Shown one piece after another: positions 27,293 through 31,898 of a stretch of 64,000 nt of DNA; position 1 is the first letter of the stretch, and each line of letters opens with the position of its first letter. The notes below the pieces were generated by a model. It saw only the letters and a program-made list of their open reading frames with translations. It was not told the DNA's origin and did no database searches. The stretch spans positions 3,017 through 67,016 of the forward strand of contig JACDEE010000004.1 of the NCBI GenBank assembly GCA_013816585.1. The letters run 5' to 3'. The stretch comes from Sphingosinicella sp. GTDB taxonomy: Bacteria > Pseudomonadota > Alphaproteobacteria > Sphingomonadales > Sphingomonadaceae. Both the position numbers and the translations under genes were made by a program.

Positions 27293-27368
27293 GCCGCTTT
27301 AGCTCAGCTGGTAGAGCACATCATTCGTAATGATGGGGTCAGGTGTTCGAGTCACCTAAGCGGCACCA
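27293..27368 (+). tRNA. tRNA-Thr (anticodon CGT)
   Basis: Cloverleaf read by eye. Acceptor GCCGCTT/AAGCGGC, D-arm AGCTCAGCTGGTAGAGC, anticodon loop TTCGTAA, T-arm GGTGTTCGAGTCACC, and an encoded CCA. Confidence 0.9.
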
Positions 27369-27464
27369 CCGTCCAAGTCATACGCGCAGGCGATGGCCAT
27401 CGCGTGATCGGCCGATGAAACCATTGCCCTTATGCGGGCGGAAGTGGCTTCGTGCGGAAGGTAA

Positions 27465-27488
27465 AGGGGTGCCGGGATCCCAGCACCC
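27465..27488 (-). terminator. hairpin terminator downstream of the repeat-protein gene
   Basis: GGGGTGC-N10-GCACCCC, a perfect 7-bp GC-rich stem. On the minus strand it is followed by TTTACCTT and lies 16 nt after the stop codon. Confidence 0.5.
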
Positions 27489-27503
27489 CTCGAAATTCAA
27501 ATC

Positions 27504-27857
27504 TTAATCGATTGCGTTCCGGGCGCGGTCGAGCGGACCACGGTTTGGATCGTCACGGCCGTCAAGCGCGTTGGCGGCGCGATCGACCGGACCCTTGTTG
27601 GGGTCGTCGGTGCCGTCGATTGCATTCTGCGCGCGGTCGAGTGGGCCCCTGTTGGGATCATCTGTGCCGTCGATAGCGTTCTGTGCCCGATCTACTGGAC
27701 CCTTGTTGGGGTCATCTGTGCCGTCGATCGCATTAGCGAGCCGGTCGAGCGGGCCGCGATTGGGATCATCATGGCCGTCAAGCGCATTGGCTACTTTATC
27801 GGCCAAGGTATCGTTCGGCTTTTGCGAAGCCTCGTTTTGCGTGTCGCGATCGCTCAT
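27504..27857 (-). CDS. acidic tandem-repeat protein (5.3 copies of an 18-aa N-A-[IL]-D-G-x-D-D-P-N-[KR]-G-P-[LV]-D-R-A unit), function unknown
   Basis: ATG at 27857 with GGAGAG 6 nt upstream. The repeat copies differ only at synonymous third positions in this frame, which supports translation. Confidence 0.75.
   Translation of the reverse strand: MSDRDTQNEASQKPNDTLADKVANALDGHDDPNRGPLDRLANAIDGTDDPNKGPVDRAQNAIDGTDDPNRGPLDRAQNAIDGTDDPNKGPVDRAANALDGRDDPNRGPLDRARNAID
27507..27791 (-). repeat. in-frame 54-nt tandem repeat (108-nt alternating super-repeat) inside the CDS
   Basis: Direct reading. The units alternate between NRGPLDR and NKGPVDR variants, giving 5 full units plus a 5-codon partial unit. 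Confidence 0.9.
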
Positions 27858-27898
27858 GATATTCTCTCCTGACTGGCCCAGGTGCGGGCGCATCTTCT

Positions 27899-27923
27899 AA
27901 CAAGCGCGGACCCACGGAGTTCC
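27899..27923 (-). promoter_or_regulatory. near-consensus sigma-EcfG-like promoter (GGAAC-N16-TGTT) upstream of the repeat-protein gene
   Basis: Minus strand reads GGAACtccgtgggtccgcgctTGTT, about 40 nt upstream of the ATG. The alphaproteobacterial GSR consensus is GGAAC-N16-17-CGTT, so there is one mismatch in the -10 element. Confidence 0.35.
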
Positions 27924-28045
27924 TTAATTCCCGGGACACGATACTTGATTCCATAATTCCGGTGACACGATAATTAATCCTGGTTGTTGCGGCCTGGCTT
28001 CTGAAATTCTGGGCAGGCAATACTTAATTCTGGCTGGCTCGGTCA
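27919..28045. repeat. AT-rich iterated motif array (TTAATTCY-like, 6 copies; includes a 19-nt direct repeat at 27925 and 27954)
   Basis: TAATTCCCGGGACACGATA (27925-27943) and TAATTCCGGTGACACGATA (27954-27972) match at 17/19 with a 29-nt period. Related TTGATTCC, TAATTAATCC, GAAATTCT and TTAATTCT copies extend to 28031. Confidence 0.6.
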
Positions 28046-28184: not shown

Positions 28185-29129
28185 TCATCGGCTGAATATG
28201 GCCGCGACCAATGCGATCCGCTCGACCTCCCGATAGGCGGGAGAATTGAGCTCCTCGCCGAAAACGTCGGGGTCGAGCTCACGATATTGGAGCCGGCATC
28301 CATTAACCCTGGCGACCATCTCCAGCTTCGCTTTCATCGCGTCGATCCCGGCGACGATCGCGCTCCCCGAATAAAGTATGAAGCGGCCGACCTTGGAGAG
28401 CCGGGGCAGTACCGCTTCGGTCATGTCGATCGAAACCTGTGCCCCGTGGTTAGAGCCGCCGTCGCGATAGAGACGGCTGTCAGGGTCGATTATGTAGGGC
28501 GGGTTGGCGATGGCGATATCGATGACTCCAGAATAACCAGCCAGCACGTCGCCGCATCGGGCCTCCACAGTGACCCCGGCCACGCGCGCGTTGACCCGCG
28601 CATAAGTGAGTGCGACCGGATTGATGTCGGTCACCACCACCCTGGCCTCGGGAACCGATCGAGCCGCGATAATGGCCCCGACCCCGGACCCGGTGCCGAC
28701 ATCCAGAATGACCGGGGGCTGGTCCCAGGACCGACCCTTCAGGTCATCCAGTTGCGCGCGCACCAGGTCGGCGAAGCGATAACTGTCCGGCCCCAGGAAA
28801 ACGGCGTCCGGCGCGTCGGTCGGATAGGAAGAGTGGACGAACAGATCGCCATGAACCCTGGAAACCCGCACAAGCGAGCGCAGGATCCCGGCCGTTTCGA
28901 TCAGCAATTTCGCGTCACGCAGCGATTTTTCGACTTCCAGGTCGAACGTTCCTGGGGGGAAGGGCAGGCTCCAGCCCAGGGCATCGCGCAGGTCACCCGC
29001 ATATTCCCCGCGCCGCCGATCTAGATTGTTCGAGTGCGTGGCGGGAGTCACCGTCACGAAATCATAATTTCGTTGATCGAGGCACCGGAGCAGCCGTTCC
29101 AGGGCAAGGTCGCGGGCGGATTGATCCAC
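28185..29129 (-). CDS. class I SAM-dependent methyltransferase with NPPY motif (PrmC/HemK-like amino-group methyltransferase)
   Basis: 314 aa. Motif I is VILDVGTGSGVG, followed by an acidic loop (VVTDIN), and motif IV is IANPPYI. Confidence 0.8.
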   Translation of the reverse strand: MDQSARDLALERLLRCLDQRNYDFVTVTPATHSNNLDRRRGEYAGDLRDALGWSLPFPPGTFDLEVEKSLRDAKLLIETAGILRSLVRVSRVHGDLFVHSSYPTDAPDAVFLGPDSYRFADLVRAQLDDLKGRSWDQPPVILDVGTGSGVGAIIAARSVPEARVVVTDINPVALTYARVNARVAGVTVEARCGDVLAGYSGVIDIAIANPPYIIDPDSRLYRDGGSNHGAQVSIDMTEAVLPRLSKVGRFILYSGSAIVAGIDAMKAKLEMVARVNGCRLQYRELDPDVFGEELNSPAYREVERIALVAAIFSR

Positions 29130-29174
29130 TATCTTATGTCAGTCTGATTTCAGCCATTTAGCCGTTTCTAGCAC

Positions 29175-29200
29175 GGAACAAGGGTCTCGCATCCGACGTT
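29175..29200 (+). promoter_or_regulatory. sigma-EcfG-type (general stress response) promoter motif GGAAC-N17-CGTT
   Basis: GGAACaagggtctcgcatccgaCGTT is an exact match to both conserved blocks and ends 6 nt before the first ATG of the downstream ORF. Confidence 0.5.
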
Positions 29201-29206
29201 TTTCGA

Positions 29207-30169
29207 ATGATGGGGCCCAGCAACTCAAATAGGCCGATGGGCCGCGTACAAGCACCCGAACCGGCCGTGATGAGCGACGCCTTTCAGCAGCGCCTTGCCC
29301 GTTGGAACCGCGATCGCCTGGCGCCCGGCTTTCCCGACCAGGATTTTGCGGCGACCAGTGCCCGCGATCAGCAGATGCGGATCACCGAGGCGGGATTCTT
29401 TACCGAGCTTCGCGAGGAGGTGGCCGATCTCGCGGCCGCTGCGCCGGCCTCGCCCGCCGATTTCGTTGCCTGGTACGAAGAATTGAAACAGACCGGCCCG
29501 GGGCAGAATGATCCGCTTTTTCCATGGCTCGCGGAACATGCCAGCAAAGCCGAATTGCGCTGGTTCTTCGAACAGGAGGCGGCGGGCGAGGCAGGGTTCG
29601 ATGATCTGGTCGCACTCACCCAGGTGAAGATGCCGACGGCGGCCAAGCTGGAACTCGCGCGAAATTACTGGGACGAAATGGGCCGCGGCAACGCCAAGGG
29701 CATGCACGGGCCGATGCTGCAGATCCTGGCCGACGCCCTTCAAGTCACGCCGACGATCGAAAATACCATTCCGGAAAGCCTTGCGCTTGCCAACGCGATG
29801 ACCGCCATGGCGACGCGCCGGGATCTTGCCTGGCATTCGATCGGCGCGCTTGGCGTTATCGAACTGACCGCCCCGACACGCGCATCCAAAGTCTCGGCTG
29901 GATTGCGGCGGGTGGGTTTCAACGGCCGGCAACGCCATTATTTCGACTTGCATGCCGTGCTGGACGTCAAGCACAGCGAGGCATGGGTGTCGGAAGTCAT
30001 AAGGACGCTGGTGGCCGAAGACCCGGCGCGCGCGCGCTTTATCGCGGAAGGCGCGCTGATCCGACTCAGATGCGGTCAGCGTTGCTATGCGCGATACCGG
30101 AGCGAGTTGTGGCGCACTGCCTCCGCGCCAAGGCCCGGTCACGAAGCGCCGGGTCGCCAGGCCGCGTGA
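29207..30169 (+). CDS. iron-containing redox enzyme family protein (heme-oxygenase-like diiron fold, PF14518-like)
   Basis: 320-aa ORF with Glu/His-rich helices (EQEAAGEAGFDD, NYWDEMGRGNAKGMHGPM, HYFDLHAVLDVKHSEAW) typical of HO-like diiron oxidases. The true start may be the internal ATG at 29237 or 29270, given the promoter position. Confidence 0.7.
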   Translation: MMGPSNSNRPMGRVQAPEPAVMSDAFQQRLARWNRDRLAPGFPDQDFAATSARDQQMRITEAGFFTELREEVADLAAAAPASPADFVAWYEELKQTGPGQNDPLFPWLAEHASKAELRWFFEQEAAGEAGFDDLVALTQVKMPTAAKLELARNYWDEMGRGNAKGMHGPMLQILADALQVTPTIENTIPESLALANAMTAMATRRDLAWHSIGALGVIELTAPTRASKVSAGLRRVGFNGRQRHYFDLHAVLDVKHSEAWVSEVIRTLVAEDPARARFIAEGALIRLRCGQRCYARYRSELWRTASAPRPGHEAPGRQAA

Positions 30170-30187
30170 CCCGCGGACTTCGTTGAA

Positions 30188-31495
30188 GTGCGAATCCTGG
30201 GCTTCACGGAAACCTGCGACCTGGGCGCGCTCTATCGCAGCCTGATCGCCGAGGGCCATGAGGTCCGGATCATAATTTCTGAAGCCGAAGCGCGTGGGAC
30301 GATGCGCGGCCTCGTCACGCAAATAGAGGATTGGGACGCTGCCCTCGAATGGGTCGGCCACGACGGGCTTATCCTGTTTGAAAGCGTGTCGGAGGGTTAT
30401 GGCGAGCGGCAGGATGCCTTGCGGCTCCAGGGCTATCGAGTGATTGGCGGGAGCGCCTGGGGCGACCGGCTGGAAAATGACCGCGCCTTTGGGCAGGAAC
30501 TGCTCGCGGAGCTCGGCTTCCCGGCCGGCCATGTCTGGGAATTCGCCGAGGTCGCGGAGGGTATCGACTTCATCGGCAAGCGACCCGCCCGCTACGTCAT
30601 CAAATTCAGCGGACCCGATTTTTCTTCCGGGGATAATTTTATCGGCGAGATGACGGACGGCGCGGACGTGGCGGCCTATCTGTCGTGCAAGAGCGGTCTG
30701 CTGGACGGCGGTTCGCGCTATGTCCTGATGGAATTTATCGAGGGAATCGAAATGGGCGTCGGCGCCTATTTCAACGGCGAGCGTTTTCTGCGGCCCGCCT
30801 GCCTCGATTGGGAACATAAGCGCTTCTTCGCCGGCGACATGGGCGAATTGACCGGCGAGATGGGCACCGTTGCGACCTTCACCGGTAGCGATGTTTTTTT
30901 CGAAGCCACCTTGCTCGGGCTGGAGCCTTATTTTCGAGGCCGAGGCCATATCGGCTACGTCAATCTCAACACTATCGTGAACGATGCCGGGATCTGGCCG
31001 CTCGAATTCACCTGCCGCTTTGGATATCCAGGTTTCGCCGTGCTCGATCCGCTGCAGGAAACCCCGTGGGGCGATTTGTTCGAGCGGATGCTCGATCCCG
31101 GCAGCGCGGCCATGGAAATTGCTCCGGGCTTCTCGACCGGCATAGTCGTCACGACCCCGCCCTTTCCCTACAGCCGGAAGCAGATGGACGAGCCGATAGG
31201 TCTGCCGATCCTGCTCTCGCCTTCTTTGACTCCGGAGGACCATGATCATCTGCATTATGGCGAAGTCGGTCTGGCGGGGGATCAATTGATCACGAGCGGG
31301 CTTTACGGCTGGACAATGGTGGTCACAGGGACCGGCGCCAGCATAAACGGTTCGATCCAGGCCGCTTATGATCGCGTGGCCAAAATCCATGTCCCTCGCG
31401 GGCGCTACCGGCTTGATATCGGCGACCGCATTGCTGACGAATATGAGCGCCTGGAAACATTGGGCTGGATCGGCCCGGGCGCGGGGTTTTCGTGA
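30188..31495 (+). CDS. PurD-family ATP-grasp ligase paralog (phosphoribosylglycinamide-synthetase-like)
   Basis: 435 aa with a GTG start. DWEHKRFFAGDMGELTGEMG matches the PurD signature DHKR..GD.GPNTGGMG. YVNLNTIV...PLEFTCRFGYPG matches PurD's EFNCRFGDPE. Confidence 0.8.
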   Translation: MRILGFTETCDLGALYRSLIAEGHEVRIIISEAEARGTMRGLVTQIEDWDAALEWVGHDGLILFESVSEGYGERQDALRLQGYRVIGGSAWGDRLENDRAFGQELLAELGFPAGHVWEFAEVAEGIDFIGKRPARYVIKFSGPDFSSGDNFIGEMTDGADVAAYLSCKSGLLDGGSRYVLMEFIEGIEMGVGAYFNGERFLRPACLDWEHKRFFAGDMGELTGEMGTVATFTGSDVFFEATLLGLEPYFRGRGHIGYVNLNTIVNDAGIWPLEFTCRFGYPGFAVLDPLQETPWGDLFERMLDPGSAAMEIAPGFSTGIVVTTPPFPYSRKQMDEPIGLPILLSPSLTPEDHDHLHYGEVGLAGDQLITSGLYGWTMVVTGTGASINGSIQAAYDRVAKIHVPRGRYRLDIGDRIADEYERLETLGWIGPGAGFS

Positions 31496-31499
31496 TTCC

Positions 31500-31898
31500 A
31501 TGGGGCTGAAACAACTTCCGCACGAACAGGTGATGGTGCGCCTCGCGCCCTCGCCCATATCCGGGATTGGTGTGTTCTCCGCGCAGCATATTGGCGAGGG
31601 CACCAACATCTTTGCCAACGACATGCGTGCCATTCGCTGGATCAGCGAGAAAGATGTCGCGGCGCTTAGCGGGCCCCAGCGCGCCTTGTATGACGATTTC
31701 GCCATCCGTCGCGATGGAGAATATGGCTGCCCGGAAAACTTCAATCTTCTGACGGTCGGCTGGTATCTCAACGAACCGGCGGCGGGCCAATCCCCGAACG
31801 TCCATATGACCGAAGATTATCAGATCATCGCTTCACGCGACATTGCGACGGGGGAAGAGATTACCGTCCGATATTCGACTTTTTCGGATAGTGTTTGA
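31500..31898 (+). CDS. small SET-domain-like protein (putative lysine methyltransferase fold)
   Basis: 132 aa, ATG 4 nt after the upstream stop. It has GIGVFS (the SET GxG block) and a C-terminal GEEITVRYS (an ELxxxY-like block). The NHS block is degenerate (LNEPAAG..PNV). Confidence 0.55.
   Translation: MGLKQLPHEQVMVRLAPSPISGIGVFSAQHIGEGTNIFANDMRAIRWISEKDVAALSGPQRALYDDFAIRRDGEYGCPENFNLLTVGWYLNEPAAGQSPNVHMTEDYQIIASRDIATGEEITVRYSTFSDSV

Follow-up and report, generated by a model that had tools for sequence, protein, structure and literature searches.

An acidic 18-residue tandem-repeat gene of Sphingomonadales with an EcfG-type promoter motif and a modular link to YflT-type stress proteins

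The 64,000-nucleotide stretch of DNA from Sphingosinicella sp. analyzed here (the window) contains a gene for a 117-residue protein, most of which is made up of tandem 18-residue units. We consider it probable that this gene encodes a small cytoplasmic, acidic and disordered general-stress protein of the hydrophilin type, transcribed alone from an EcfG promoter. Each unit would consist of a short amphipathic helix, (L/V)DRAxNA(L/I)D, and a rigid Asp/Pro/Gly turn, GxDDPN(R/K)GP. This 18-residue module, apparently specific to Sphingomonadales, is in most relatives attached as a tail to a YflT-type stress protein anchored in the membrane. EcfG would switch the repeat gene on under stress such as desiccation, osmotic or heat stress; inside the cytoplasm, the multivalent repeat may then serve as a polymer that protects or binds. 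Three elements of this proposal, namely EcfG dependence, disorder in vivo and the protective function, are what we infer from the analyses described below.

The general stress regulons of alphaproteobacteria are rich in small hypothetical proteins that may play roles in desiccation and in survival on surfaces. The family defined here has a clear sequence signature, a consistent ECF/EcfG promoter motif and an evolutionary link to YflT-type membrane stress proteins. It represents a compact candidate bacterial hydrophilin outside the LEA/GsiB lineage.

The repeat gene and its conservation

The coding sequence occupies positions 27504–27857 on the reverse strand, from an ATG at 27857–27855 to a TAA stop at 27506–27504, and an independent gene caller gave an identical 117-residue product for the source assembly. 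The translated protein comprises a 22-residue head (MSDRDTQNEASQKPNDTLADKV), five 18-residue units and a terminal RNAID. This layout, including the units as listed, is exactly that given in a preliminary description of the region. Residues 13–26 of the head (KPNDTLADKVANAL) align to the repeat core PNRGPLDRAANAL; they therefore represent a degenerate sixth unit. A degenerate pattern of the unit, GAYGAYCCNAAYMGNGGNCC, has five in-frame matches in the window, all of which are inside the repeat ORF, against 0.35 expected by chance.

At the DNA level, Tandem Repeats Finder places the array at 27522–27791 (reverse strand), with a period of 54 nt (5.0 copies, 71% matches, score 207) and a super-period of 108 nt (2.5 copies, 78% matches, score 318). 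The units alternate between NRGPL and NKGPV along the array, and the 108-nt super-repeat previously proposed on this basis is seen both in the translation and in the longer period. In their first halves, the units do not alternate strictly but show an outer/inner arrangement, in which units 1 and 5 are alike, as are units 2–4. The 12.4-kDa protein is strongly acidic, with a pI of 4.3, a net charge of −11 and 25 Asp residues. Its GRAVY value on the Kyte-Doolittle scale is −1.36, and glycine accounts for 10 of the 117 residues (8.5%). Cys is absent, as noted in the preliminary description, and so are F, W and Y.

The units have diverged extensively in DNA sequence. Nei-Gojobori counts pooled over the 10 unit pairs yield a pS of 0.69 and a pN of 0.15 in the sense frame (pN/pS 0.22). 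Thus, synonymous sites between units are near saturation, while replacement sites are conserved. The remaining scorable frames have pN/pS values between 1.3 and 3.4, with the exception of one antisense frame (0.31), in which wobble positions coincide. Pairwise comparison of seven standalone orthologues gives pS values of 0.52–0.86 and pN values of 0.13–0.26. These orthologues retain the sense frame, the start codon, the Shine-Dalgarno sequence and the stop codon, while DNA identity at synonymous sites is gone. The central claim of the preliminary description, that the peptide rather than the DNA is conserved under purifying selection and without recent slippage, is therefore borne out by the difference between pS and pN among units as well as among orthologues. 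However, its statement that the repeats differ only at synonymous sites is too strong. Units 2 and 4, for which seven differences had been counted, all of them synonymous, actually differ at 10 nucleotides. Seven of these are synonymous third-position changes, and three fall in the first codon, where GCT (Ala) corresponds to CAG (Gln) and constitutes a replacement. Every one of the 10 unit pairs contains between one and six replacement codons.

Some features of individual units are maintained at the same place in the array across species, for example a 'DRL' following unit 1 and, in unit 2, an N-R position that is variant. The array is therefore older than these species and is not being homogenised. 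As judged from the substitution patterns, the gene is real, coding and under strong purifying selection, and its repeats are old and conserved as peptide, not as DNA.

An antisense 'shadow' ORF of 109 residues (MAARSTGPLLGSSVPSIAF...), at 27571–27900 on the forward strand, spans the repeat array and is itself repetitive; it could mislead gene callers.

Family distribution and fusion to YflT-type proteins

To define the family, we combined a word-indexed search of 5.8 billion proteins (19 relatives), an exhaustive profile search of 1.84 billion cluster representatives (33 relatives at E≤0.001) and a scan of 185,579 species genomes, in which 43 loci with the repeat family were located. All loci titled to the order level belong to Sphingomonadales, and two are titled only 'uncultured Alphaproteobacteria'. 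The only Pfam match of the repeat protein is DUF7553, which is below threshold (E of 0.007, 17 bits compared to a cut-off of 27). Searches of NCBIfam, PDB sequences and Rfam gave nothing relevant to the repeat gene, the sole Rfam match in the region being the neighboring tRNA, and a full-text literature search for DDPNRGP-type strings found no paper. The family is small, lineage-restricted and described in no domain database or paper searched. Two PDB matches, one to a low-complexity repeat region of a protein annotated as LIM zinc-binding-domain-containing and one to an enolase at E∼0.8, were judged to be due to chance. Weak profile matches outside Sphingomonadales (P0148, P0152, P0156, P0157 and P0159) are unrelated repeat proteins.

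The core of the unit, DDPNRGPLDRAANA, was examined in 137 units from 44 proteins. Eight of its positions (D0, D1, P2, G5, P6, D8, R9 and N12) are 97–100% invariant. The spacing between units is 18 residues in 77 cases and 28 residues, with a Gly-rich linker, in 13 cases. A divergent long relative from a metagenome (P0143, 250 residues) carries degenerate units (DDPSRGPIDRAANPLDD, DDPDRGPVDRVANAIDG and DNPDRGPIDSLDNEVDG) at irregular spacing and has no YflT core; thus, the module can also evolve into longer standalone arrays.

The repeat is most often part of a larger protein. At 36 of the 43 loci, one to seven copies of the core are fused in frame within a protein of 220–300 residues, which otherwise consists of the conserved YflT-type core, a hydrophobic segment of the Gly-zipper type and a C-terminal domain. 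Most fused proteins have the repeat at the N-terminus; in L003, L010, L013 and P0140 it is at the C-terminus. When three fused relatives were scanned with the YflT profile (PF11181), L010 scored 28.1 bits, above the cut-off of 26.2, L009 fell just under the cut-off with 23.2 bits, and L017 had no match. Another relative, the metagenomic protein P0009, has a precomputed PF11181 annotation. The in-frame fusions show a modular link between the repeat and YflT-type stress proteins, a label that the Pfam matches support in part.

Standalone genes, encoding proteins of ∼90–120 residues, are present at seven loci in addition to the window. Sphingomonas tagetis MG17 and S. oligophenolica S5.1 are cultivable bacteria with the standalone form, and Sphingomonas sp. 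Leaf67 is one with the fused form. The standalone proteins and the C-terminally fused form share the ending NAIDRN-, the lead-in DKVxxAxDGHDDP and a GGAAC promoter. The window gene is therefore read as a tail-only derivative of the C-terminally fused form. Pfam detected no PF11181 match in the window protein, and no fused YflT-type core was found anywhere in the 64-kb window. Thus, compared to the YflT/general stress protein 17M family (PF11181), whose core accompanies the repeat in 36 of 43 homologues together with the Gly-zipper segment and an ECF-type promoter motif, the window protein corresponds to the repeat tail only, without the YflT domain or a membrane segment.

Promoter and transcription unit

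An EcfG-type promoter motif of the form GGAAC-N16-TGTT (GGAACTCCGTGGGTCCGCGCTTGTT) is located upstream of the repeat gene at 27899–27923 on the reverse strand (−35 element GGAAC at 27923–27919, −10 element TGTT at 27902–27899), ending 41 nt before the ATG. The EcfG motif of Sphingomonas melonis Fr1 is GGAAC-N17-20-GTT and is enriched within 100 bp of the CDS (PMC6599016). In Sphingopyxis granuli TFA, the motif is GGAAC-N16-CGTT with an almost invariant AAC, and TGTT is a frequent −10 variant that is functional in vitro (PMC7083833). The window promoter fits the motifs of both species, and the gene has the arrangement expected of EcfG regulon promoters, i.e. GGAAC-N16/17-(C/T)GTT less than ∼100 bp upstream of the CDS. 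It is thus predicted, from the motif, to belong to the regulon of the PhyR-NepR-EcfG system. The EcfG regulons of these two species include many small hypothetical proteins; none of the species whose EcfG regulons have been published carries a homologue of the repeat gene.

The motif recurs throughout the family. GGAAC-N16-18-GTT, which has a background rate of 4.8e-5 per nt, starts between −63 and −74 relative to the ATG in the window gene and in six of the seven standalone orthologues, the remaining one being a frameshifted MAG contig. It starts between −58 and −64 in three C-terminally fused genes. The upstream DNA around these motifs is otherwise unalignable among relatives. When either G or T is allowed at the first position, (G/T)GAAC-N16-18-GTT is found in 37 of 42 loci, compared to 0.027 expected per 150-nt region. 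Most of the N-terminally fused genes (L007–L041) have TGAAC-N16-18-GTT, at about −95 to −130 from the start of the repeat. The TGAAC variant of the −35 element is absent from the main text of both sphingomonad regulon papers (PMC6599016, PMC7083833), and may indicate weaker recognition by EcfG or a different ECF sigma factor. The motif and its position predict that the whole family is driven by an ECF sigma factor, which appears to be of the EcfG type.

Other elements of a transcription unit are also recognizable. A Shine-Dalgarno sequence, AGGAGA, can be read at 27865–27870 (reverse strand), 7 nt upstream of the ATG, and a purine-rich block before the ATG is conserved in the alignment of orthologues. 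An upstream ATG at 27893 is an implausible start, since it lies approximately at the predicted transcription start; the ATG at 27857 is thus taken as the start codon. Beginning 13 nt past the stop codon, an intrinsic-terminator-like hairpin at 27464–27491 (reverse strand) contains a 12-bp GC-rich stem and a GAUC loop, followed by UUUACCUU. Its folding energy is −25.3 kcal/mol (z = −3.4), and none of 200 shuffled sequences folds as well. A convergent tRNA-Thr(CGT) gene is located downstream, at 27293–27368. With its own predicted promoter, Shine-Dalgarno site and terminator, the repeat gene is monocistronic as far as these signals can indicate.

Three direct repeats of 29 nt are located upstream of the promoter at 27920–27948, 27949–27977 and 27999–28027 (forward strand), with 100%, 83% and 66% identity to the first copy, which overlaps the −35 GGAAC. 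A regulator may bind there, or the copies may be left over from a duplication of the promoter. A third strict match in the window, GGAAC-N17-GTT at 432–456 on the reverse strand, falls inside the CDS of an EamA-like transporter on the opposite strand and probably occurs by chance.

Candidate function, alternative explanations and neighboring enzymes

AlphaFold2 models of the window protein have a mean pLDDT of 45, and in them (L/V)DRAxNA(L/I)D forms short helices and GxDDPN(R/K)GP forms loops. In a fused relative, the YflT-type domain is predicted with a pLDDT of 70–83 and the repeats with 40–54. The underlying alignments are shallow (13 and 9 sequences), so that the low confidence is weak evidence for disorder. 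The repeat protein is probably disordered according to these models, in agreement with its earlier characterization as probably extended or disordered. The most hydrophobic 15-residue stretch reaches a Kyte-Doolittle maximum of −0.46; in the absence of a hydrophobic stretch, the protein is predicted to have neither a signal peptide nor a membrane segment.

The hydrophilin criteria of Garay-Arroyo, as quoted in PMC7448490, are a glycine content above 6% and a hydrophilicity index above 1.0, and the window protein lies within both numerical limits with its Gly content of 8.5% and GRAVY of −1.36. A further criterion, accumulation under water-deficit or osmotic stress, is addressed here by the promoter prediction. 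Among the roles suggested in the preliminary description, that of a stress hydrophilin fits these values, the EcfG-type promoter and the fusion of the repeat to YflT-type proteins. Zmo0994, an LEA-like protein of Zymomonas, has a signal peptide (PMC7448490).

The closest functional analogue of the window protein is GsiB of Bacillus subtilis, together with the group 1 LEA proteins. Both the window protein and GsiB are small, very hydrophilic, free of Cys and Trp, and almost wholly composed of tandem units of ∼20 residues. GsiB is expressed from a sigma-B promoter, and the window gene likewise has the promoter of a general-stress sigma factor, predicted from the motif to be of the EcfG type. However, there is no sequence relationship between them, as no LEA or KGG match was found in Pfam and nothing in NCBIfam. 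In addition, the window unit has 18 residues and is acidic (protein pI 4.3), with many Pro and Asp residues. The core of the family varies far less than such proteins usually do, the family is restricted to Sphingomonadales, and the module also forms the tail of a membrane protein. Homology between GsiB and LEA group 1 is cited in PMC3691520.

The invariance of the core bears on a different mechanism, in which the repeat is a specific multivalent binding module that a conserved protein partner would recognize as a short linear motif, or that would bind a metal or another ligand. The module would normally be displayed on the membrane-anchored YflT-type protein, and the standalone form would be a soluble scaffold, buffer or competitor. 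This explanation agrees with the hydrophilin-type one on regulation and departs from it on mechanism; we regard it as conceivable, but doubtful. In its favor, near-invariance of eight core positions across 44 proteins of one order, combined with linkers that vary (18- or 28-residue spacing), exceeds what a generic hydrophilic shield would need, at 97% or more, and points to a specific ligand or structure. The copy number of one to seven is as expected of a module tuned by valency, and the unit-position features kept across species mark an old array that is not homogenised. However, no partner or ligand can be identified, no gene is conserved beside the family, and the AlphaFold2 models do not show the repeat docking onto the YflT-type domain. 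Metal binding in particular had been suggested from a resemblance to Asp-rich cation-binding loops. Eight regular expressions, covering EF-hand (PROSITE PS00018), DxDxDG, RTX, TSP3, Excalibur, dockerin and crystallin-type patterns, gave no match in the protein, nor did Pfam. The Asp of 'LDG' is only 44% conserved among the 137 units, and the invariant core has a net charge of only −1. Cation binding by the repeat is thus weakened as a proposal, as far as known patterns and conservation can tell. The specific version, in which the near-invariant DDPNRGPLDRAANA would be an unrecognised multivalent binding motif on the YflT-type protein and the standalone protein its stress-induced soluble competitor or scaffold, seems unlikely to us. 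If true, the standalone repeat gene would add a minor level of regulation to the general stress response instead of protecting passively. Only a specific ligand for the invariant core would make the payoff more than modest.

The genes adjacent to the repeat gene suggest another possibility, which is that the repeat protein is a ribosomally made multi-core precursor or substrate modified by the neighboring HemK-like methyltransferase, HO-like di-iron enzyme, ATP-grasp ligase and SET protein. These genes are physically close in the window genome, with the ATP-grasp gene less than 3 kb away, and both the repeat gene (27923, reverse strand) and the HO-like operon (29175, forward strand) have EcfG-type motifs and may be co-induced. 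The near-identical tandem units resemble multi-core RiPP precursors and contain Thr, Lys and Asp, the residue types that are cross-linked in graspetides. However, when 11 neighboring proteins of the window (NAD-GDH, ORF217, the HemK-like methyltransferase, the HO-like di-iron enzyme, the PurD-like ATP-grasp protein, SET, PPK2, thioesterase, HD-GYP, FabG and HemH) were used as tblastn queries, none had a match (E≤1e-3) closer than 8 kb to any of the 43 homologues. The question raised earlier, whether homologues adjoin the methyltransferase, HO-like and ATP-grasp genes, is thus answered by none of 43 loci. An all-against-all comparison of the ORFs at the standalone loci and in the window revealed no common gene besides the repeat gene. 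Conversely, three other sphingomonad genomes (L044–L046) share the conserved methyltransferase, HO-like and ATP-grasp genes, with a SET gene as well in L046, and none of these three enzyme-cluster loci contains a DDPNRGP-type ORF. The family sizes are also unequal, with more than 4,398 members for the ATP-grasp family compared to 19–33 for the repeat protein, and the best matches of the ATP-grasp protein are PurD/GARS (PF01071, PF02843, TIGR00877) rather than the peptide-maturase type. A gap of 327 nt separates the repeat gene, which has a predicted promoter and a terminator to itself, from the methyltransferase gene. The repeat protein does not follow leader/core logic, and conservation is lacking for the residues that might be cross-linked, Thr and Lys being at no conserved unit position among the 137 units. 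On this genomic evidence, the absence of co-occurrence largely refutes a precursor role, which we consider very improbable, and the tempting assignment of the repeat gene as a RiPP precursor is set aside as unsupported. The best explanation for the adjacency is a chance juxtaposition of two separate transcription units, both predicted to belong to the general stress response. The probability that the repeat is a non-coding, DNA-level tandem repeat, or that the antisense ORF is the real gene, is negligible. The antisense frame is open over 109 residues with a pN/pS of 0.31, a value that is the expected shadow of its wobble positions coinciding with those of the real gene. The ratio is lowest in the sense frame, where synonymous sites are saturated; the gene signals of this frame outlast synonymous identity among the orthologues, and in 36 genomes its repeat is joined in frame to a folded domain.

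The enzyme cluster itself (window 28185–31898) consists of the HemK-like methyltransferase gene, divergent from an operon for the HO-like (Haem_oxygenas_2), PurD-like ATP-grasp and SET proteins. In each of the four genomes examined, an EcfG-type motif, GGAAC-N16/17-(C/G)GTT, immediately precedes the HO-like gene (window 29175–29200, forward strand; L044 5016, L045 1932 and L046 5933, reverse strand). A literature search on this cluster found nothing relevant. It looks like a pathway for small-molecule or protein modification under general-stress regulation. In Sphingomicrobium, genes for Ku and LigD (non-homologous end joining) are found just downstream of the enzyme cluster (L044 8277–11672; L045 5193–6918). 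Ku is among the top EcfG-regulated genes of S. melonis Fr1 (PMC6599016 Table 1), which, together with this location, suggests local clustering of general-stress genes.
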